IMG/VR virus record: IMGVR_UViG_3300028920_001457
Coordinates: 13,444-77,443 of that record
Length of the DNA stretch: 64,000 nt
Source: a virus
Direction: 5' to 3' (one strand)
Position numbers and translations under genes: made by a program. Positions 13,058-29,692 of this stretch are shown here, piece after piece. Positions within the stretch are counted from its first letter, which is position 1; the number at the start of each line of letters is the position of its first letter. Below the pieces are notes generated by a model. It did no database searches and was not told the origin of the DNA. It saw only the letters and a list, made by a program, of their open reading frames with translations.

Positions 13058-13546
13058 TTATGTTAAATAGTCATTGTTCCATGTTGATTTATTTGTAATA
13101 TAGTCAACCCATTCCCATGTTTTCCTGGCTTTTTTTATGTCTTTGTCTGAGTAATAAAGATACCATAGCACCATTTCCCAATATAGGTCTTCGTCGTCTA
13201 CGGAGGCCACCCACCACGAACAGAACTGCCATCCGAAAAACCATATCTGAAATGACGGCGACCACTCAAAACGCGGTGTGCCATACTTGTCTTTCCATCC
13301 CAAACCATACCTGACAACCGCCATAGGCCAGCCATAGCTTATATCATAACCAAACAACCTGATGTAACTACATCTTAAAAACTTTGGTCTTTTCTTGCGT
13401 ATTGTAAGTATAGTTCTGTTAAAGTTCCATGGGTCAAAATATGGTGTGCCATGTCTTATTCTACCGAAGTAATACCTCTTGCGGGGTAACACGAAAACCC
13501 CGTCAATCTGTTTCAGTATCTTTTTAAAGCTTTTCATCAGTCCCAT
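13058..13546 (-). CDS. hypothetical Trp-rich phage protein
   Basis: LGWKDKYGTPRFEWSP segment. Confidence 0.7.
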   Translation of the reverse strand: MGLMKSFKKILKQIDGVFVLPRKRYYFGRIRHGTPYFDPWNFNRTILTIRKKRPKFLRCSYIRLFGYDISYGWPMAVVRYGLGWKDKYGTPRFEWSPSFQIWFFGWQFCSWWVASVDDEDLYWEMVLWYLYYSDKDIKKARKTWEWVDYITNKSTWNNDYLT

Positions 13547-15834: not shown

Positions 15835-15913
15835 AGCGGTGGAGTGAAACGGATAAATAAATCATTCGAGTCTCATAATCTCGAGATAGTGGGTTCAACT
15901 CCCACGACCGCAA
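15835..15913 (+). tRNA. tRNA-Met(CAT), possibly initiator-type
   Basis: anticodon loop CTCATAA, T-arm GTGGG-TTCAACT-CCCAC, 1:72 A:A mismatch. Confidence 0.75.
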
Positions 15914-20780: not shown

Positions 20781-21500
20781 ATGCCAAAATCAAAGACAAA
20801 AGACTGCCAGGGGATAAGTCTTAACAAAAGACGCAACAGGTGGGAGGTTACTATTATCTATAAAAGGAAGCGCTATTATTTGGGTTCTTATCACAACAAA
20901 AAGATTGCACGGGCTGTATGGGAGTCCAAGAGAGATGAATTTTATGGGACAGAATCAGTACTCGACTTGCGTGGCGAGGTTTGGATTAAAATGGATAAAC
21001 ATAAGGGGGAATATTATGTTAGCAATAAGGGGCGAGTAAAAAACCTAAATTTTAAGGGCATGGGCTACGAAAGATTGTGTGGTATCATACCTTCGCATGG
21101 CTATAATCAAGTAAAGATAAATAGGGAGAGTTATTCTATACATCGGTTAGTTTTACAATATTTTAAGGGAGAATCCGACCTTCCGGTTAATCACAAGGAC
21201 GGAAATGGAACAAATAATATTTTAGAAAACCTAGAGTATGTTAGTCAGCGGATTAATGGTTGCCATGGTTATTTTGTTGTGAACAAAAGAAATGTCCTAA
21301 CGGGGGCACATTGGGATAAGTGGAATAATAGTTGGCGGTCTGAAATAAACATTAATGGTAGATTGGTATATTTAGGGTCTTTTAATACATCCATAGAGGC
21401 ATGCGATAGATACTTACGGGCATTATTGGATTATGGCCTTCAGGATGATTATGATTATATTGTCGAAATGATTGGACATAAACCCCATGTCGGAAATTAG
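20781..21500 (+). CDS. HNH homing endonuclease (NUMOD4, HNH and AP2-like domains)
   Basis: GEVW...YYVSNKGRVK, HRLV...VNHKDGN..NN..ENLEYV, YLGSF. Confidence 0.88.
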   Translation: MPKSKTKDCQGISLNKRRNRWEVTIIYKRKRYYLGSYHNKKIARAVWESKRDEFYGTESVLDLRGEVWIKMDKHKGEYYVSNKGRVKNLNFKGMGYERLCGIIPSHGYNQVKINRESYSIHRLVLQYFKGESDLPVNHKDGNGTNNILENLEYVSQRINGCHGYFVVNKRNVLTGAHWDKWNNSWRSEININGRLVYLGSFNTSIEACDRYLRALLDYGLQDDYDYIVEMIGHKPHVGN

Positions 21501-22690: not shown

Positions 22691-22722
22691 TTTGGTGGAT
22701 TCAAAAACATGTTTTATATTTG
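22691..22722 (+). promoter_or_regulatory. Bacteroidota primary-sigma promoter
   Basis: TTTG, 20 nt spacer, TATATTTG. Confidence 0.75.
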
Positions 22723-22957: not shown

Positions 22958-24712
22958 ATGAATACTTTAAGGTTATTCAATGCGGTAATCGCAAAAGAAT
23001 CTACAGAAAAACCCTTCGTTTCAGAAGAGGGATTTATCATTGAATCAAATGCTCTTTGGGCAAAAAATAGGATATTGGAATTCTATCTCAAGGAAAAGTT
23101 AAGTGGTAACGATCTTAACAAAACATTTCACAAATCATGGGCTAAAATTAAAAACAGCTCTCGGTTTGAATTGTTTGTTGAGCAGATATTTCATTATATT
23201 TCTACATACGGAAGTGATTTTCAGGACGAAATATATATTCCCGATGAAGTATTAAATGTACCTGACGTAAAGTTGTCATACAAGGTTGTCCGTGCATATT
23301 CCAAGGAGGAAATGACGGATAAGTGTTTATCACTATTAAAATCAGGTATAGCATTAAAGGAGGAAACAATTAATGAGGTGTTATCGGTGCTTGTTGAAGA
23401 ACTGGATTATTCCTTTACGGGAAATGAGAAAATCAGAAACAAAGAGGCTGTTATAAAAATAGCAGATATTTATGGCGTTCTGCCCAATGACACCATGGAG
23501 TTTTTCAGATATATTATATATCGGGCTACGGGGCAGTCTCTTCTTATTAAGAGCAATGATTTGATAATGAAAATTAAAGAAGGGAATTATAATCCGTCGG
23601 TTCAGTTTAATAAATTCGGATTAGAAAAATTGGCAACGATATTTAATCGTTTTAAGCCATTATTCTTGGCATTTAAACCCAAGTGCGGAAAAACGATCAA
23701 TAAAATTGCGAAGTTGTCTAAAAAGTTTCATAAACCTCTCGTTGTCAACCCCCTTAATACCGCAACAAGTGAGCTGATGGGGGATGATGATAGACATTGG
23801 TTGGATAATGCTACGCCGTACGCTTTATTTAAAGTATTATCGGCATGTTATACGAGAGCGAGCGGCCAAGAGTCTTTCGTTTATCGGATTAGAAACGGGA
23901 AATCCTGGGTCAAGGAAAAGGAAACTATTTTGAGGGTGAACAAGTTAAATTTTGATTTCATTATAAAGTATCTGAAAGAAAGATATGATTTATCAGAAAA
24001 GAAATTCTTTTTGCCTGCTGATATAAAATATGCCCTTCCTACATCAGAAAAAATGTTTGTTGGCAATATTCCCACAGGAACGAGATTTTATGGCAGGAAG
24101 TTGGCGGTTGGGATATATTGGGAGGACGCATGGGGGGCAAGAGACCTCGATCTTTCGGGGTTGACGCTTTCAGGGCATAAGGTTGGTTGGAATGCAGAAT
24201 ATGATTATGGCGAAGGACAATTAATGTATTCTGGCGATATTACATCCGCCCCCAATGGTGCGGTAGAGTACCTGTATGCCAACAAAGGGCTTCGGGAATC
24301 GGTTTTAATAAAAAACAATGTTTATTCGGGAAGTAATGAATGTGATTATAAAATCGTTATTGGGTTGGGGGATAAGATTTCTGTGGATTATATGATGAAC
24401 CCAAATAATCTTTTTATAGAAGTCAAATGTAAGTCCGTACAAAAACAGACCATATTGGGGATTCTTACTCCAAAGAAAATGGGGCAGTGCTTTGTATTGC
24501 TTAATTTTGGGGCGGGACATGTAAGGGTGTCGGGCAACAGTAAGATATCTAATATCGCCCTTAAGTCACTATATGAACAATGGAACAAACCGTTTTCATT
24601 TAATAAATTGATTAAATTATTGGGGGCGCAGATTGTTGAAAACAAAGAGGATGCAGATTATGATTTCTCGTCTGATAATTTAGAAAAAGATTCTTTTATT
24701 AAGATATTTTAA
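22958..24712 (+). CDS. large hypothetical protein with C-terminal TerD-like domain
   Basis: GIYW...RDLDLS...YSGDITSAPNGAVEY motif; helical N-terminal half. Confidence 0.7.
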   Translation: MNTLRLFNAVIAKESTEKPFVSEEGFIIESNALWAKNRILEFYLKEKLSGNDLNKTFHKSWAKIKNSSRFELFVEQIFHYISTYGSDFQDEIYIPDEVLNVPDVKLSYKVVRAYSKEEMTDKCLSLLKSGIALKEETINEVLSVLVEELDYSFTGNEKIRNKEAVIKIADIYGVLPNDTMEFFRYIIYRATGQSLLIKSNDLIMKIKEGNYNPSVQFNKFGLEKLATIFNRFKPLFLAFKPKCGKTINKIAKLSKKFHKPLVVNPLNTATSELMGDDDRHWLDNATPYALFKVLSACYTRASGQESFVYRIRNGKSWVKEKETILRVNKLNFDFIIKYLKERYDLSEKKFFLPADIKYALPTSEKMFVGNIPTGTRFYGRKLAVGIYWEDAWGARDLDLSGLTLSGHKVGWNAEYDYGEGQLMYSGDITSAPNGAVEYLYANKGLRESVLIKNNVYSGSNECDYKIVIGLGDKISVDYMMNPNNLFIEVKCKSVQKQTILGILTPKKMGQCFVLLNFGAGHVRVSGNSKISNIALKSLYEQWNKPFSFNKLIKLLGAQIVENKEDADYDFSSDNLEKDSFIKIF

Positions 24713-24713
24713 T

Positions 24714-24721
24714 TATCTTTG
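24714..24721 (+). promoter_or_regulatory. -7 promoter box for tRNA operon 1
   Basis: TATCTTTG, 4 nt before the leader ATG; no clear -33 box. Confidence 0.7.
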
Positions 24722-24725
24722 CACC

Positions 24726-24788
24726 ATGATTAGAATACAGCATATAGAGCAACCGCAACAGCCAAGAGCCGATATTGGGTCTGGATAG
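24726..24788 (+). CDS. attenuator leader peptide 1, MIRIQHIEQPQQPRADIGSG
   Basis: codons 4-13 are only Ile(ATA), Gln, His, Glu and Pro, the tRNAs of operon 1. Confidence 0.85.
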   Translation: MIRIQHIEQPQQPRADIGSG

Positions 24789-24811
24789 GTGTTCTATGTG
24801 TTTATAATACA

Positions 24812-24844
24812 GAGCCTTCTGGACTATTTCAGAGGGCTTTTTTT
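24812..24844 (+). terminator. attenuator terminator 1
   Basis: GAGCCTTCTGGA-CTAT-TTCAGAGGGCTT plus T run, ending 4 nt before tRNA-Pro. Confidence 0.85.
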
Positions 24845-24848
24845 ATTT

Positions 24849-24921
24849 CGGAAGTATGGTGTAATCAGGTAGCATACGTGCCTTGGGCGCACGGGGAGTA
24901 GTTCGAATCTAATATTTCCGA
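24849..24921 (+). tRNA. tRNA-Pro(TGG)
   Basis: CGTGC-CTTGGGC-GCACG anticodon arm; acceptor CGGAAGT/ATTTCCG. Confidence 0.9.
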
Positions 24922-24927
24922 CAATAT

Positions 24928-24999
24928 TGGCACATAGGTTAATGGTAAGACCTCTCGGCTTATACCCCAGCAGTCCAAGTTCGATTCTTGGTGTGCCAA
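24928..24999 (+). tRNA. tRNA-Ile(TAT)
   Basis: loop CTTATAC; acceptor TGGCACA/TGTGCCA resembles tRNA-Ile(GAT). Confidence 0.85.
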
Positions 25000-25000
25000 C

Positions 25001-25075
25001 GGTGGTTATGGTGTAATGGCAACATAACTGTTTGTGGAGCAGTGGTTATCAGTTCGAGCCTGATTAATCACCCCA
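25001..25075 (+). tRNA. tRNA-His(GTG)
   Basis: loop TTGTGGA, G-1:C73 pair, encoded CCA. Confidence 0.92.
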
Positions 25076-25076
25076 T

Positions 25077-25147
25077 GCTCGGTTCTTCTAACGGCAGGAA
25101 ATCGGGTTTTCACCCCGGCAATAGCGGTTCAATTCCGCTACCGAGTA
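25077..25147 (+). tRNA. tRNA-Glu(TTC)
   Basis: TCGGG-TTTTCAC-CCCGG. Confidence 0.9.
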
Positions 25148-25153
25148 CGATAA

Positions 25154-25224
25154 TGCCTTGTGGTGTAATAGTAACACATAACACTTTGGATGTTATGTTT
25201 TCGGTGCGAATCCGAACAAGGCAT
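25154..25224 (+). tRNA. tRNA-Gln(TTG)
   Basis: TAACA-CTTTGGA-TGTTA; U1:A72. Confidence 0.9.
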
Positions 25225-25233
25225 CAAAATAAA

Positions 25234-25264
25234 TTTGGAAATTTAAAAATATGTATTATCTTTG
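25234..25264 (+). promoter_or_regulatory. promoter for tRNA operon 2
   Basis: TTTG, 19 nt spacer, TATCTTTG. Confidence 0.8.
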
Positions 25265-25283
25265 TACCAATAAAAAACAAAAA

Positions 25284-25358
25284 ATGCAGTTAGTCAGAAA
25301 GAATATGGTGAATATTGACCGCACAGGCGCAACCTTGCGAGGGGGTATTCCTATATGA
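25284..25358 (+). CDS. attenuator leader peptide 2, MQLVRKNMVNIDRTGATLRGGIPI
   Basis: codons 4-17 cover all 11 tRNAs of operon 2 and nothing else. Confidence 0.88.
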   Translation: MQLVRKNMVNIDRTGATLRGGIPI

Positions 25359-25379
25359 TTTCTGTAAGAAACAACAGGG

Positions 25380-25408
25380 ATGCCCTCAAGAGATTGGGGG
25401 CATTTTTT
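25380..25408 (+). terminator. attenuator terminator 2
   Basis: ATGCCCTCAA-GAGA-TTGGGGGCAT plus T run, ending 2 nt before tRNA-Ile. Confidence 0.88.
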
Positions 25409-25410
25409 AT

Positions 25411-25481
25411 TGGCTCATAGTTTAATAGTAGAACGCATCTCTGATACGGATGTAGCCTAAGTGCGATTCTTAGTGAGCCAA
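25411..25481 (+). tRNA. tRNA-Ile(GAT)
   Basis: CATCT-CTGATAC-GGATG. Confidence 0.88.
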
Positions 25482-25485
25482 CAAT

Positions 25486-25558
25486 AGCGGGTTGTGTAGA
25501 AATAGTATCTCGTCAGTCTCATAAGCTGAAGTTATGGGTGCAATCCCCATACCCGCTA
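25486..25558 (+). tRNA. tRNA-Met(CAT), elongator-type
   Basis: TCAGT-CTCATAA-GCTGA; paired 1:72; Ile2 identity not excluded. Confidence 0.8.
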
Positions 25559-25562
25559 CAAT

Positions 25563-25634
25563 GGGAATATGGTGAAATGGGTATCACGATGGACTGTTAA
25601 TCCTTCGTTATAGGTTCAAGTCCTATTGTTCCCG
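25563..25634 (+). tRNA. tRNA-Asn(GTT)
   Basis: loop CTGTTAA, G73. Confidence 0.9.
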
Positions 25635-25638
25635 CAAA

Positions 25639-25710
25639 GTCCTTGTGGTGTAATGGAGAGCACAAGTGTCTTCTAAGCATTTAGTCAGGGTTCGACTCCT
25701 TGCGGGGACA
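25639..25710 (+). tRNA. tRNA-Arg(TCT)
   Basis: AGTGT-CTTCTAA-GCATT. Confidence 0.9.
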
Positions 25711-25716
25711 CTAAAT

Positions 25717-25791
25717 ACCCTTGTAGGCTCCTTGGTGGAGAACCAGATTGTCACTCTGGTAAAACAGACGGATCGTAACCGTTCAGGGGTG
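25717..25791 (+). tRNA. tRNA-Asp(GTC)
   Basis: CCAGA-TTGTCAC-TCTGG, G73. Confidence 0.85.
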
Positions 25792-25796
25792 CAAGC

Positions 25797-25869
25797 GGGT
25801 TGCAATGTACCAAGGCTGGCGAGAGACCCTTGCAAGGTTTTTGGCTCGGTTCGATTCCGAGGCGATCCA
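25797..25869 (+). tRNA. tRNA-Ala(TGC)
   Basis: loop CTTGCAA; G3:U70 identity pair. Confidence 0.88.
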
Positions 25870-25872
25870 CAA

Positions 25873-25944
25873 GCAGGATAGGTGTTGATGGTTGCATAAG
25901 AGCCTTCCAAGCTCAAGGAGTGAATTCGAATTTCACATCCTGCT
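25873..25944 (+). tRNA. tRNA-Gly(TCC)
   Basis: loop CTTCCAA, U73. Confidence 0.88.
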
Positions 25945-25948
25945 CAAT

Positions 25949-26023
25949 GGGCGATTAGTTTAATGGACAGAATATATCGCTACGGACGATATGGTGAGGA
26001 TTCGATTTCTTCATCGCCCACCA
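25949..26023 (+). tRNA. tRNA-Arg(ACG)
   Basis: TATCG-CTACGGA-CGATA, encoded CCA. Confidence 0.9.
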
Positions 26024-26025
26024 AT

Positions 26026-26097
26026 GACCCTATAATTTCAACAGTAGAATCCCATCCTTTTAAGATGGTTGTCTTGGGGCGGAACCAAGTGGGGTCA
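26026..26097 (+). tRNA. tRNA-Lys(TTT), atypical T-loop
   Basis: CCATC-CTTTTAA-GATGG; T-loop GGCGGAA. Confidence 0.8.
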
Positions 26098-26101
26098 CAA
26101 A

Positions 26102-26173
26102 GGCAGGTTAGTTTAAGCGGCAAAACACGTGATTTGTAACCATGAGATACGGCTTCGATCGCTGTACTTGCCT
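26102..26173 (+). tRNA. tRNA-Thr(TGT)
   Basis: loop TTTGTAA; acceptor GGCAGGT/ACTTGCC. Confidence 0.82.
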
Positions 26174-26178
26174 CAAAT

Positions 26179-26251
26179 AGCCCGATAGTGTAGCGGTTAA
26201 GCACGGCACCCTTACAAGATGTCAGCCACAGTTCGAGTCTGTGTTGGGCTA
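26179..26251 (+). tRNA. tRNA-Val(TAC)
   Basis: loop CTTACAA; canonical D and T arms. Confidence 0.88.
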
Positions 26252-26269
26252 CAAAAAAACATAAATATA

Positions 26270-26300
26270 TTTGTTTATTTAAAAATTATTATTAATTTTG
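26270..26300 (+). promoter_or_regulatory. promoter for tRNA operon 3
   Basis: TTTG, 19 nt spacer, TAATTTTG. Confidence 0.8.
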
Positions 26301-26306
26301 CAGATT

Positions 26307-26369
26307 ATGAAAAATCTATGGTGTTCATATAGTTTATTTTCACTCTTGCTCTTGAGGCGAGGCGGATAA
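26307..26369 (+). CDS. attenuator leader peptide 3, MKNLWCSYSLFSLLLLRRGG
   Basis: codons 4-16 cover all 9 tRNAs of operon 3 and use only those amino acids. Confidence 0.9.
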   Translation: MKNLWCSYSLFSLLLLRRGG

Positions 26370-26393
26370 ACTATATCTACCAAAGATATATTG

Positions 26394-26421
26394 AAGCCTC
26401 GCTTATAAAGCGGGGTTTTTT
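26394..26421 (+). terminator. attenuator terminator 3
   Basis: AAGCCTCGCTT-ATA-AAGCGGGGTTT plus T run, ending 5 nt before tRNA-Leu. Confidence 0.88.
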
Positions 26422-26426
26422 GTTAT

Positions 26427-26499
26427 GGGGAATTGACGTAAATGGCAACCGTATTGGGTTTAAGCCCCAAGTTTGAGAGTTCGAATCTCTTGTTCCCCA
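26427..26499 (+). tRNA. tRNA-Leu(TAA), short variable loop
   Basis: TTGGG-TTTAAGC-CCCAA, A73. Confidence 0.85.
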
Positions 26500-26502
26500 C
26501 AT

Positions 26503-26575
26503 GGTCGAGTGACGTAACAGGCAACCGTATCCGTCTCAAAAGCGGAGTTTATGGGTTCGAATCCCATCTTGACCA
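26503..26575 (+). tRNA. tRNA-Leu(CAA), short variable loop
   Basis: TCCGT-CTCAAAA-GCGGA, A73. Confidence 0.85.
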
Positions 26576-26579
26576 CAAA

Positions 26580-26652
26580 GCTCAGGTAGTAAATTGGCAA
26601 AGCAACTTGACTTAGGATCAAGGATTTGTGAGTTCGAGTCTCACCCTGAGTA
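26580..26652 (+). tRNA. tRNA-Leu(TAG), short variable loop
   Basis: CTTGA-CTTAGGA-TCAAG, A73. Confidence 0.85.
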
Positions 26653-26656
26653 CTAT

Positions 26657-26748
26657 GGATGGCTAAACCACAGTAGGTCTAAGTGGGACGGTCTTGAAAA
26701 CCGTAGGTCGCTCAACACGGCGTGTAAGTTCGAGTCTTACGCCATCCG
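26657..26748 (+). tRNA. tRNA-Ser(TGA)
   Basis: ACGGT-CTTGAAA-ACCGT, long variable arm, G73. Confidence 0.9.
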
Positions 26749-26752
26749 CGAA

Positions 26753-26835
26753 GGGACGGCTTGGCATTAGTGAGCCTAAGAGTCTGTAAAACTCCCGCTT
26801 CGGCTGTGGTGGTGCAAATCCATCTCGTCCCACCA
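26753..26835 (+). tRNA. tRNA-Tyr(GTA)
   Basis: loop CTGTAAA, variable arm, encoded CCA. Confidence 0.88.
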
Positions 26836-26836
26836 A

Positions 26837-26919
26837 GGAGAGTAAATCATCAAGGCGATGACTACGCCCGCTAAGCGATAGGTTCTGAAAGGAATGGGAC
26901 TCGGGTTCTCTGCTCTCCG
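26837..26919 (+). tRNA. tRNA-Ser(GCT), divergent
   Basis: acceptor GGAGAGT/GCTCTCC, G73, loop CCGCTAA, variable arm; irregular T arm. Confidence 0.7.
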
Positions 26920-26924
26920 CAAAC

Positions 26925-26994
26925 AGGGATACCCATTGGAGTGGTAAGCGGTCTCCAAAACCGTGATTTGAATGTTCGACCCGTTCTATCCCTG
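26925..26994 (+). tRNA. tRNA-Trp(CCA), reduced D arm
   Basis: GCGGT-CTCCAAA-ACCGT, G73. Confidence 0.82.
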
Positions 26995-26998
26995 CTAT

Positions 26999-27075
26999 GG
27001 AGAAGTAGCTGAGTCGGTTCAAGCGTCGGACTGAAAATCCGAAGTAGATGAGTTCAATTCTCATATTCTCCACCA
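26999..27075 (+). tRNA. tRNA-Phe(GAA)
   Basis: TCGGA-CTGAAAA-TCCGA, encoded CCA. Confidence 0.92.
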
Positions 27076-27076
27076 A

Positions 27077-27143
27077 GACCCAATAAAAGCACAAAACGTG
27101 GTTTGCAAAACCATGGGGGACGGTGCGATTCCGTCTTGGGTCT
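27077..27143 (+). tRNA. tRNA-Cys(GCA), apparently lacking a D arm
   Basis: GTGGT-TTGCAAA-ACCAT, perfect acceptor and T stems, U73. Confidence 0.78.
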
Positions 27144-27181
27144 CTAATATATTTCTTACCTTTGCATAAAACAAGAATAGT

Positions 27182-29692
27182 ATGGGCAAGAAACAACCGC
27201 CAAAGGCAGAAAAGAAACTTTCCTTTGAAACAGACTTTGAGTTACAGGAAGAAACCCGCCTAAAGCTACGTCCCGAAGATATAGTAAAGATAAAAGAGGA
27301 AGCAGGCAAACTACCCGATGACTTTAATCCTTATGGGAACTATATGCCCGAAAAACTCAGATTTCTGGGCGACGAACCACCCCCAAACACCAAAAGATTT
27401 GTTGGAATAAATGTGGATGATGATGATCTGACACCGATTTATGTAAGCACACCCGCCCCCCCGCCGAAAGAATTAATAGATTATCACGACCTACCACCCA
27501 CAGAACAATATTGGCGGCGTATGGAAGTACCCAAACGACTGCATAAATTAGAAGAGAGAGCCTTCCTTGCGCTATTTGAGGTAGAAAGAAGAAACAGGCA
27601 GGAAACAGTACAGGGCTATAGGATTTATCAGAAATATTGGGAAATATTAGAAGCAGAACAGGATAAATATGCGGAAGAGATAGCATGGATAAAAAAGATG
27701 TGGTGGTACAGGACTAACGGCTATTGGTTCTATAATGATGGCGAACCCGCCTATTGTACTGGTGAATATTTTGATTATCTTAACTTTTGGTATATAAAGG
27801 ATGGTGAGACACATGTGGAATTCAGGGAAGAGGATCGGGTTATTTCTATTTTTTCACATTATCTAAGAACAACAACCGAGTCTTTCGCCAACATAAACCC
27901 CACCACGGGTAGGGCAATGAAAAATAAAGATGGCAAGTATGATATGGTGGATGTCGGTGCAAGAGTATTTTTCGGTGACATGAAACCGAAATTCAGGAGG
28001 TGTGGGGAAACGCAATGGGCGTGTCACGGGATATGGCTTGGTGCGAGTACGACACCCGCCGCTTATGGTACTATCATATCCATGGATGGTGAAAACGCAC
28101 AAAAGCACTATTACAAAAAGCTAATACCCGCATGGAATAAATATCCTATGTTTCTCAAGCCAATATGGATGGGTACGAAACGTCCCACAAATATTAAGTT
28201 GATAGAACCACCCAATGTATTTAATCCCAATATGGAGGGATTGGGTTCTAATATTGATTATACAGAAAGCTCCGGGGTGTCGAAGAATGATGGTGATACA
28301 TTACATTTTTGTCTCTCAGACGAGGAGGGAAAAAGTAAGTCACCTATAGCCGAAAGGTGGAGTGTAAATAAGATAGCTATGTCAACGGGTGGTGGGTCTA
28401 ACATCCTTAATAACGCTTATGCGTGGCATCCGAGTACCGTTGAGGATATTGGTGACGGTGCGCCAGAGTATTTTAAAATGTGGCAACTATCTAATTTTTA
28501 TGAAAGGATACCCATACTTGGGCAGACACACTCGGGGTTGGCAAGGATTTTCATTCCCGCATATAAGAAACTCGAGGGTTTTATTGACAGGTGGGGTAAG
28601 TCGGTATCGGATACACCAACGAAACGACAGATAAAATACAGTCCACGAGCCAAATTTGCACTCACGGGCAAGGGTGCAAGGGAAACACTACAGGCAGTTC
28701 TTGATTCCTTGTTAGCCAAGGGGACACCCGAGGCACTTGAGGCATACAGGTCAAGGCGCAGAAAGTTCCCGATGAAGTCGGCAGATGCATGGTTGGGGAG
28801 TTCGGGTAATGTGGGTTTCAACCTTGAGATAATAGACAAGCGTATAGAGGAACTCAATAGGATAAAGTCTTTTGGCAAGATGAATTATAAAACCGGGTAT
28901 TTTTACAGGGAAAACAATCATCCACAGGGCGATGTGTTGTGGCGTACAGACCTCGACAACCCCAAGTTTATCATGTCCAAGGACTTACCACAGGAATTAA
29001 CCAACAGAAGGAGTGTGGTCGACTTTTACGATGGTCTCAGGCAACAGTGGAAGAAATCATGGACACCAGTAGACGGATATAAATTCACCCTTGGGGTGGA
29101 TATGTTCAGAAATCTATCGCCCGTAGAGGCAAAACAGGCATCTAAATTTGGGGGATTTACCAATAACTCCCGCCAGAGTAATGGTGGTATAGCTATTCTA
29201 TGGGAATATGATTCAGAATATCCCGATAGTGGCAGGTGTGTATTGTCGTATAATTATCGTCCATCGACACAAAAAGAGTTTATGGATGATGTTCTTATGG
29301 CGGCACAGTATTTCGGGGCAATGATATATCCCGAACAAAACGTAGAGCGGTTTATTGAGTATATGTTTGATGAGGGCTATGGCGGGTATGGGCTTTATGA
29401 TATTGATTTGGTAACTGGTAATATAAAGAAACTACCAGGGCGATATACTACAAAAGAAAGCCTGCAAGAGATGTTCAGGGAATATAAGGACTATATAGAA
29501 CGTAAGGGTGCGGAAGAAGAACACGATGATTTGCTAATGCAGATGAAAAACATACGTGGGGTAGAAGATGCTACACGTAATGACCTTTTCGTTGCTTTCG
29601 GTATGTGTCTTCTTGGAAGTAAGTCCCGTGTCAGGGAAATTATAAAGCGTGAAGACTTTGGTGAGGCAATAGCAATAGACGATATTTTTTAA
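27182..29692 (+). CDS. terL: terminase large subunit (crAss-like type)
   Basis: KFRRCGET Walker-A variant, LSDEEGK Walker B, LGVD nuclease motif, RND near the C-terminus; directly upstream of portal. Confidence 0.88.
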   Translation: MGKKQPPKAEKKLSFETDFELQEETRLKLRPEDIVKIKEEAGKLPDDFNPYGNYMPEKLRFLGDEPPPNTKRFVGINVDDDDLTPIYVSTPAPPPKELIDYHDLPPTEQYWRRMEVPKRLHKLEERAFLALFEVERRNRQETVQGYRIYQKYWEILEAEQDKYAEEIAWIKKMWWYRTNGYWFYNDGEPAYCTGEYFDYLNFWYIKDGETHVEFREEDRVISIFSHYLRTTTESFANINPTTGRAMKNKDGKYDMVDVGARVFFGDMKPKFRRCGETQWACHGIWLGASTTPAAYGTIISMDGENAQKHYYKKLIPAWNKYPMFLKPIWMGTKRPTNIKLIEPPNVFNPNMEGLGSNIDYTESSGVSKNDGDTLHFCLSDEEGKSKSPIAERWSVNKIAMSTGGGSNILNNAYAWHPSTVEDIGDGAPEYFKMWQLSNFYERIPILGQTHSGLARIFIPAYKKLEGFIDRWGKSVSDTPTKRQIKYSPRAKFALTGKGARETLQAVLDSLLAKGTPEALEAYRSRRRKFPMKSADAWLGSSGNVGFNLEIIDKRIEELNRIKSFGKMNYKTGYFYRENNHPQGDVLWRTDLDNPKFIMSKDLPQELTNRRSVVDFYDGLRQQWKKSWTPVDGYKFTLGVDMFRNLSPVEAKQASKFGGFTNNSRQSNGGIAILWEYDSEYPDSGRCVLSYNYRPSTQKEFMDDVLMAAQYFGAMIYPEQNVERFIEYMFDEGYGGYGLYDIDLVTGNIKKLPGRYTTKESLQEMFREYKDYIERKGAEEEHDDLLMQMKNIRGVEDATRNDLFVAFGMCLLGSKSRVREIIKREDFGEAIAIDDIF

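Follow-up and report, generated by a model that had tools for sequence, protein, structure and literature searches.

The DNA analysed here, referred to as the window, is a stretch of 64,000 nucleotides (nt) covering positions 13,444 to 77,443 of the 77-kb IMG/VR virus record IMGVR_UViG_3300028920_001457, and the genes it carries are phage genes. Between window positions 24849 and about 27150 lie 25 transfer RNA (tRNA) genes, identified with ARAGORN and the Rfam tRNA model, and a large terminase gene is located directly downstream of this array. The tRNA genes are arranged in three blocks separated by gaps of 174–185 nt, with a promoter, a short open reading frame (ORF) and a hairpin followed by a T-run in each gap. 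The present analysis concerns the element in front of the second block, termed unit 2. This is a self-contained region of about 175 nt, made up of a promoter, an ORF and a putative RNA switch, which precedes 11 tRNA genes and is a candidate transcription attenuator.

The tRNA array and the unit 2 promoter

Provided that U34 can read four-codon boxes and that Arg-ACG (I34) also reads CGG, the 25 tRNAs read all 61 sense codons. Each amino acid is confined to a single block, with the exception of Ile, for which ATA is read from block 1 and ATT/ATC from block 2. Four of the 25 calls are weaker, including Lys (relaxed ARAGORN settings only) and Ser-GCT (anticodon loop unclear), and the tRNA-Cys was folded by eye, being called by no program. 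Within block 2, ARAGORN found 8 of the 11 tRNAs at default settings. The tRNA-Met and tRNA-Gly genes were called at a relaxed threshold, both lying above the Rfam tRNA cut-off, whereas tRNA-Lys (26026–26098) was called in the window under relaxed ARAGORN settings only, yet is called in relatives. The Rfam tRNA model identified no clear tRNA elsewhere in the record; a borderline match of 29.4 bits (window 15835–15913, plus strand), far from the array, received no ARAGORN call.

The unit 2 promoter conforms to the pattern TTTG-N17-21-TAnnTTTG, and is one of 17 such sites in the window, where 2.9 ± 1.7 are expected. This enrichment of the bipartite Bacteroidota promoter suggests that the phage host is probably a member of the Bacteroidota. 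The sequencing runs that contain this stretch hold DNA sampled from marine sediment and salt marsh, and none of those listed is an RNA run. In the flavobacterial sigma-A promoter motif that has been described, the -7 box occupies positions -12 to -5 (PMC9723704), and this geometry predicts a unit 2 transcription start at ~25269. The predicted 5′ untranslated region (UTR) would then be 15 nt long, A-rich and devoid of a Shine-Dalgarno sequence, which is usual for initiation regions in the Bacteroidota (PMC9723704). An earlier sequence-only reading of this DNA had placed a leader ORF upstream of the 11 tRNA genes. Such an ORF is indeed present, and its bounds are here corrected to 25284–25358.

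Codon content and folding of the leaders

The codons of the unit 2 leader ORF correspond closely to the tRNAs encoded downstream. Codons 4–17 are all read by block-2 tRNAs (14/14), and every one of the 11 tRNAs is represented. The proposal that this run constitutes a panel for exactly the downstream cluster is therefore upheld, with the codons as originally quoted. Statistics were calculated from the phage's own codon usage, in which 55% of codons belong to block 2. On this basis a 23-codon ORF would contain 14 or more in-block codons in a row with a probability of 1.3e-3, and 14 in-block codons would cover all 11 tRNAs with a probability of 1.7e-3; together these give a chance of ~2e-6 per ORF. 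Moreover, when all 909 small ORFs of the window (ATG-ORFs of 12–40 codons, six frames) were compared, leader 2 ranked first for block 2 on run length as well as on coverage. A chance ORF is rejected in view of these codon-match statistics. Beyond the control run, codons frequently lie outside the block (Leu 18, position 20, Pro 23 and Ile-ATA 24); these fall in the part of the RNA designated region 2 (Table 1), where, according to the folding model, a stall would not give read-through.

The same correspondence is seen in the two sister units. In leader 1, codons 4–13 are all block-1 codons (10/10) and cover 5/5 tRNAs (Pro, Ile-TAT, His, Glu and Gln; block 24849–25225), with two ATA codons for the rare tRNA-Ile(TAT). 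In leader 3, codons 4–16 are all block-3 codons (13/13) and cover 9/9 tRNAs (Leu x3, Ser x2, Tyr, Trp, Phe and Cys; block 26427–27150). Leaders 1 and 3 are the best ORFs for blocks 1 and 3, respectively, among the same 909, and when the three leaders are set against the three blocks, matches between a leader and a foreign block are at background level. All three leaders share a common layout, namely M-x-x, the control run, 4–7 other codons and a stop. Judged from the usual -7 box distance, leaders 1 and 3 (24714–24728 and 26293–26309) would be leaderless or have a 5′ UTR of 0–2 nt, as opposed to 15 nt for leader 2, and this contrast in spacing is kept in relatives; the ORF of unit 1 is probably leaderless.

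The codon data bear on the possibility that the leaders respond to uncharged tRNA arising from amino-acid limitation, as in biosynthetic operons, so that tRNA output would simply follow host nutrition. The trp and his attenuators are blind, at the sensing step, to whether a tRNA is missing or uncharged, and a hungry codon in leader 2 could likewise not distinguish the two. However, additional tRNA gives no relief from amino-acid starvation, and the codons are grouped according to the tRNA gene blocks rather than biosynthetic families, which makes a starvation sensor very unlikely.

The folding properties of unit 2 were analysed using RNAfold. The naked RNA (25272–25410) folds into helix 1:2, formed by 25295–25316 and 25344–25364 (-27.5 kcal/mol), together with a terminator hairpin at 25376–25407 (-18.4 kcal/mol), in which TTTTTT is followed by two bases before the start of tRNA-Ile. 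The alternative structure is an antiterminator, 2:3, of 12 base pairs (bp) between 25341–25352 and 25376–25387, with 9 Watson-Crick and 3 G-U pairs and a hairpin stability of -21.4 kcal/mol. When the control codons were masked, mimicking a stalled ribosome, the antiterminator became the best fold and the terminator was lost. Conversely, when the RNA was masked to 12 nt past the stop codon, the terminator alone remained. When the upstream RNA was shuffled 1000 times with dinucleotides preserved, 995 of the shuffled sequences had a weaker complement to the terminator 5′ arm than the real one (P=0.005). Both pairings had been anticipated by the sequence-only reading: the 12-bp antiterminator was found to overlap the terminator 5′ arm as described, with 25376–25387 common to both hairpins, and the suggested pairing of the CAGAAA, ATATGG and GAATATT segments of the control codons (25295–25316) with 25344–25364 is the best fold of the naked RNA.

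The position of the stop codon is also consistent with a switch of this type. It falls within region 2, at a distance of 18 nt from the start of region 3. With a ribosome footprint of textbook size, a terminating ribosome would be expected to mask region 2 and not region 3, which is the geometry of the trp attenuator. The sister units share these structures to differing degrees. Unit 3 shifts to its antiterminator fold when the control codons are masked (P=0.009, shuffles), while in unit 1 helix 1:2 and the terminator are present and the antiterminator is weak (P=0.1, shuffles).

In a T-box-like element, codons matching precisely the tRNAs encoded downstream might in principle be specifiers that pair directly with the anticodons, without a ribosome. 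At E<=1, however, no T-box match was obtained over 24500–27400, and no Rfam family matched 25234–25410, including Trp_leader, His_leader, Thr_leader, Leu_leader and Phe_leader. Unit 3 gave a sub-threshold match to Trp_leader (30 bits against a gathering threshold of 41 bits, E=0.002) and another to Phe_leader. In addition, unit 2 has no T-box-like bulge for an acceptor end, and its conserved start codon, frame and stop codon (see below) point to translation. Direct sensing of tRNA by the RNA is thus scarcely credible.

Table 1. Coordinates of unit 2, of the tRNA genes of block 2 and of the sister units, numbered from the first letter of the window.
Feature	Position	Strand	Details
Promoter of unit 2, Bacteroidota-type sigma-A	25234–25264	+	-33 TTTG at 25234–25237; -7 box TATCTTTG at 25257–25264
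5′ UTR, predicted	25269–25283	+	15 nt, A-rich, without Shine-Dalgarno sequence; AAUAAAAAACAAAAA
Leader ORF (leader 2)	25284–25358	+	24 codons + TGA; ATG at 25284, TGA at 25356–25358; encodes MQLVRKNMVNIDRTGATLRGGIPI
Control codons 4–17	25293–25334	+	GTC AGA AAG AAT ATG GTG AAT ATT GAC CGC ACA GGC GCA ACC
Region 1	25295–25316	+	5′ arm of anti-antiterminator helix 1:2, within control codons 4–11; RNAfold, RNAalifold
Small inner hairpin	25319–25339	+	Between regions 1 and 2; spans codons 12–19
Region 2	25341–25364	+	Pairs with region 1, or with region 3 via 25341–25352 (GGGGGTATTCCT); contains the stop codon
Small apical hairpin	25359–25373	+	In antiterminator loop; UUUCU/AGAAA in the window; RNAfold
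Region 3	25376–25387	+	AGGGATGCCCTC; common to antiterminator (with region 2) and terminator (with region 4)
Region 4 (terminator 3′ arm) and T-run	25394–25410	+	T-run at 25403–25408; tRNA-Ile starts at 25411
Block 2, putatively regulated	25411–26252	+	11 tRNA genes; ARAGORN, Rfam tRNA model
tRNA-Ile-GAT	25411–25482	+	Block 2
tRNA-Met-CAT	25486–25559	+	Block 2
tRNA-Asn	25563–25635	+	Block 2
tRNA-Arg-TCT	25639–25711	+	Block 2
tRNA-Asp	25717–25792	+	Block 2
tRNA-Ala	25797–25870	+	Block 2
tRNA-Gly-TCC	25873–25945	+	Block 2
tRNA-Arg-ACG	25949–26023	+	Block 2
tRNA-Lys-TTT	26026–26098	+	Block 2
tRNA-Thr	26102–26174	+	Block 2
tRNA-Val	26179–26252	+	Block 2
Sister unit 1	24714–24848	+	-7 box 24714–24721; ORF 24726–24788 (MIRIQHIEQPQQPRADIGSG); terminator 24811–24840
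Sister unit 3	26270–26426	+	Promoter 26270–26300; ORF 26307–26369 (MKNLWCSYSLFSLLLLRRGG); terminator 26393–26419

Conservation of unit 2 in related arrays

Relatives were sought with a degenerate pattern of the leader-2 core, which identified one IMG/VR contig (G006) and 23 metagenome contigs. Searches with leader-1 and leader-3 patterns, placing no constraint on leader 2, recovered G006 and one further full array (L045), both with the same leader-2 core, and the leader-3 pattern yielded no new leader-2 version in IMG/VR. In total, 20 further distinct versions of unit 2 were obtained on 25 viral and metagenome contigs, and 19 versions, that of the window included, were aligned, with pairwise identities of 60–90%. 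The full unit (promoter, ORF, switch and tRNA-Ile-GAT) is present in 23/23 metagenome contigs as well as in G006 and L045, and the promoter is kept in all relatives. Every contig long enough to show it has the three-block array.

The leader ORF contains no indels in the 19 versions. Its start codon is ATG in 18 and TTG in one, and its stop lies at a single alignment column in 19/19, being TGA in 9, TAG in 6 and TAA in 4. Codons 5–17 are in-block, and all 11 tRNAs are covered, in 19/19 versions; since the leader-2 search pattern itself fixes codons 8–16, the unbiased part of this result comprises codons 2–7 and 17–24 and the arrays reached through leaders 1 and 3 (G006 and L045). With nine of the 11 tRNAs fixed by the pattern, Arg-TCT and Lys become the informative cases. 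Indeed, the AGR and AAR codons, which lie outside the pattern, are always present while their order is shuffled (R-K, K-R or R-K-K), and in one version (L025) K-K is found with AGA shifted to codon 17. Positions 2–6 and 20, by contrast, vary freely in residue though the codon set is kept, and for this reason a functional small peptide was judged unlikely.

The RNA structures are conserved alongside the codons. The RNAalifold consensus consists of helix 1:2 and the terminator, in which 95.3% of alignment cells are paired, compared with <=56% in slid controls. Double changes occur in 17 cells, against 9.6 ± 2.0 in shuffles, and none of 500 shuffles reached 17. Taken separately, the terminator is 98% paired across the 19 versions and pairing in the antiterminator core reaches 94% of cells. 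Folded by itself, helix 2:3 exceeds 3:4 in stability in all 19 versions, and in 15/19 the naked RNA folds into 1:2 plus the terminator. The two small hairpins are more variable. At alignment columns 58/73 of the inner hairpin a C-G pair is replaced by U-A in 4 versions, through two synonymous sites, and is mismatched in 5, and at the site of the apical hairpin relatives carry other complementary pairs (CTTGA/TCAAG, TATCT/AGATA and TTCTTT/AAAGAA), as judged by eye in a gappy part of the alignment.

These data were weighed against a protein-independent RNA element, in which the ORF would be incidental and untranslated and the hairpins would act as a constitutive partial terminator, an insulator or a processing signal between tRNA operons. 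Conservation of helix 1:2 and the terminator as RNA structures is what such an element predicts, and the invariant synonymous sites of codons 7–11 in the 19 versions are expected under structural constraint. It does not account for a codon pattern with a chance of ~2e-6 that is seen three times with block-specific sets, nor for a start, frame and stop that are conserved while the type of stop codon changes, and a plain terminator has no need of an antiterminator that is more stable than the terminator in all versions. An element of this kind is accordingly highly improbable.

A further alternative is that unit 2 is a general sensor of translation capacity, or an infection timer, in which any slowing or lack of ribosomes (for instance by host shut-off or late-infection competition for ribosomes) causes read-through and codon content is secondary. 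The structure alone makes read-through depend on ribosome position, whatever has slowed the ribosome, and a single codon per tRNA gives weak specificity. This explanation leaves unaccounted for both the three disjoint codon sets, each corresponding to its own block, and the 11/11 coverage that persists despite shuffled codon positions. Moreover, the fold without a ribosome predicts termination and not read-through. We regard a capacity sensor as unlikely.

The arrangement of the units differs between contigs. Block 3 of L023 and L025 runs in the opposite direction, diverging from unit 2, and has a promoter, leader and terminator of its own; that the inverted block retains its leader indicates that the units are independent transcription units. 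The array follows the terminase gene in G006 and precedes it in the window, and identities between the two are only 41% for the terminase and 46% for the next gene. The leader 1 core QHIEQP is kept in relatives, except in the degenerate leader of L033. Between tRNA-Pro and tRNA-His of three contigs (L022, L031 and L041), the place of tRNA-Ile(TAT) is taken by another tRNA, whose anticodon is CAT and which may be a lysidine-type Ile2; leader 1 of L041, the sole readable one of the three, keeps an ATA codon, and in L031 and L041 an HNH-like gene lies beside this tRNA. Inserts inside or near the arrays of relatives include a Cys/His-rich ORF (L018, 4686–5098), a small ORF (L045, 5273–5700) and 651-nt gaps (L019, L027 and L039), which by analogy only may be homing-endonuclease genes.

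Backbone relatives reached through TerL and a 584-residue protein encoded upstream (L001–L003, L007–L009 and G001–G005) do not have this array and so contributed nothing to the comparison; L009 has a differently built tRNA array, with no such leader in the single stretch read. When the 2.6-kb array was compared with 50,697 phage records by distant blastn, only single tRNA fragments matched, and nothing similar was thus seen in isolated phages. In cellular genome contigs the leader-2 pattern gave 0 matches, and 8 matches to the leader-3 pattern, with no tRNAs nearby, were rejected as chance. An array in the crAss-like phage cr111_1 (MT774387) has a promoter and a 13-codon ORF before tRNA-Gln, but was not counted, as there is no T-run terminator and no clear codon match.

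Some features in and around the array of the window are also recorded here. The class-II tRNA at the Ser(GCT) position (26837–26920) has an irregular anticodon arm with C rather than U at position 33 and a weak stem; ARAGORN was unable to name its anticodon, and its G006 homologue likewise has C33. Variants of the anticodon loop have been discussed in connection with nuclease evasion, and this tRNA may be one of them. An HNH/AP2 endonuclease gene (Pfam) is located at 20781–21500, 3.3 kb upstream of the array, and a promoter match at 22691–22722 lies upstream of the gene for the 584-residue protein. Pfam searches of the genes neighbouring the array revealed nothing tied to tRNA repair or defence.

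A model for demand-driven tRNA synthesis and its known parallels

Taken together, the data are best explained if unit 2 is a ribosome-mediated leader-peptide transcription attenuator that gates the phage operon of 11 tRNA genes and provides demand-driven tRNA synthesis, a reading to which we assign a probability of roughly 0.7. Since the leader uses the codons of the 11 downstream tRNAs, production of these tRNAs by the phage is probably restricted to times when ribosomes lack a sufficient supply of one of them. Attenuation had been the central proposal of the sequence-only reading, and every sequence-level feature of a trp/his-type leader was found and is correctly placed. Initiation of transcription at the proposed site, ORF translation, ribosome stalling and the choice between termination and read-through are all predictions from the sequence and the computed folds.

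In the model, host RNA polymerase would start at ~25269 and a ribosome would load on the leader ORF. If all tRNAs are plentiful, the ribosome would reach the stop codon in region 2, 3:4 would pair and transcription would end at the T-run. If a tRNA is scarce or uncharged, the ribosome would stall between control codon 4 and about codon 14, covering region 1, so that 2:3 would pair over 12 bp; formation of this antiterminator would block the terminator and the 11 tRNAs would be transcribed. Without a ribosome, helix 1:2 would form and the terminator would act. The loop would be self-limiting, because its products are the very tRNAs that are sensed, and the tRNA block would thus be supplied by the phage on demand. 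Sister units 1 and 3 would exert the same control over their own blocks. The earlier suggestion that the leader acts as an OR gate over ten amino acids is retained in part: the logic follows from the geometry, while a stall at codons 15–17 may not give read-through, as region 2 would be too close.

Besides the search bias described above, several observations weigh against this attenuator model. The antiterminator varies by one-sided wobble changes, with no double compensatory substitutions, and is not above shuffles; such a pattern is expected of a strand that must pair with two partners and also code, but it gives the key helix no support from covariation. In 4/19 versions the naked RNA folds into the antiterminator and not into 1:2. 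With only one codon for each tRNA, a mild shortage may be poorly sensed, and the control codons GTC, GGC and ACC require four-way wobble by the phage tRNA U34. By the folding model, a ribosome stalled at codons 15–17 would cover part of region 2. Finally, certain arrays break the rule that leader and block correspond. Block 3 of G006 is without the Trp, Phe, Cys and Leu-CAA tRNAs, the codons for which are kept in leader 3; a deletion in two IMG/VR contigs (L055 and L082) joins leader 1 and tRNA-Pro to the Trp/Phe/Cys end of block 3; and leader 1 of L033 has lost its start and frame. These four arrays look like recent decay, and suggest that the match is not enforced at all times.

A more tentative extension, possible though in our view doubtful, is that the three attenuators constitute an inducible counter-defence. 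A stalled ribosome would report the loss of any host tRNA of a block and replacement tRNAs would be switched on. The array would then amount to a mobile cassette with which the phage senses and repairs losses across the whole decoding set, in a circuit that limits itself. The triggers might be, for example, anticodon nucleases or host shut-off, the link to nucleases being speculation.

Phage tRNA genes are usually treated as constitutive passengers. If the attenuator model is correct, unit 2 would be the first example known to us of tRNA genes controlled by ribosome-sensed tRNA supply, and would extend textbook attenuation to a new class of target and to a single leader that samples 10 amino acids. 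It makes on-demand supply of phage tRNAs directly testable, for instance upon cleavage of host tRNA by defence nucleases or its decay after shut-off, and unit 2 might find use in the Bacteroidota as a natural biosensor for translation stress at particular codons.

In its architecture unit 2 resembles the enterobacterial leaders thrL (Thr and Ile), ilvL/ivbL (Ile, Val and Leu), trpL and hisL. There, too, the control codons of a short leader ORF lie in region 1, four regions form mutually exclusive 1:2, 2:3 and 3:4 helices, the first gene is preceded by an intrinsic terminator, and the position of the stop codon lets the terminating ribosome block region 2; a stall leads to read-through. Leader-peptide attenuation has also been indicated in amino-acid operons of Flavobacterium (PMC9723704). 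Unlike the enterobacterial leaders, which carry runs of codons for 1–3 amino acids and regulate biosynthetic enzymes, unit 2 is phage-borne, has a Bacteroidota-type promoter, appears to regulate tRNAs and samples 10 amino acids (11 tRNAs), mostly with one codon each. Given that no Rfam family matches, unit 2 is considered an analogue and not a sequence relative of the enterobacterial leaders, and the multivalent thr and ilv leaders appear mechanistically closest by analogy.

Control of a component of the translation apparatus by the charging or supply state of its cognate tRNA is likewise found in the Escherichia coli pheST attenuator (pheM leader), which senses one amino acid and controls a synthetase, and in the T-box riboswitches of aminoacyl-tRNA synthetase genes, which bind tRNA directly and need no ribosome. 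In unit 2, unlike both of these systems, a ribosome would read a panel of codons and the output would be the tRNAs themselves. Full-text literature searches linking leader peptides, attenuation or antiterminators with tRNA genes, operons, arrays or phage returned no description of such control of tRNA genes. Attenuation is thus a known mechanism for which, as far as the literature was covered, use on tRNA genes appears not to have been described.

With regard to function, phage tRNAs have been considered as counter-defence against tRNA-cleaving systems such as PARIS, retrons and PrrC-type nucleases (PMC11464382, PMC11555353 and PMC10264068). The common element would be that phage-encoded tRNAs replace host tRNAs that become limiting in infection; those studies appear to be directed at what the tRNAs do and not, as for unit 2, at their control, and none of them was among the papers returned by the literature searches on leader peptides and attenuation. 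A long, cryptic tRNA array, the trn operon of Anabaena PCC 7120, is induced under translational stress (PMC8421152) and is controlled by the repressor TrcR (PMC10272220). The two reports make no mention of a leader peptide, attenuation or a terminator, and the trn operon differs from the phage array in being under a protein repressor and on a cellular megaplasmid. Nevertheless, both would be accessory, near-complete tRNA arrays that stay silent until translation is impaired, and both have homing-endonuclease genes beside or inside them, on the phage side by analogy. The Anabaena trn operon may therefore be seen, again by analogy, as the nearest functional parallel to the phage array.

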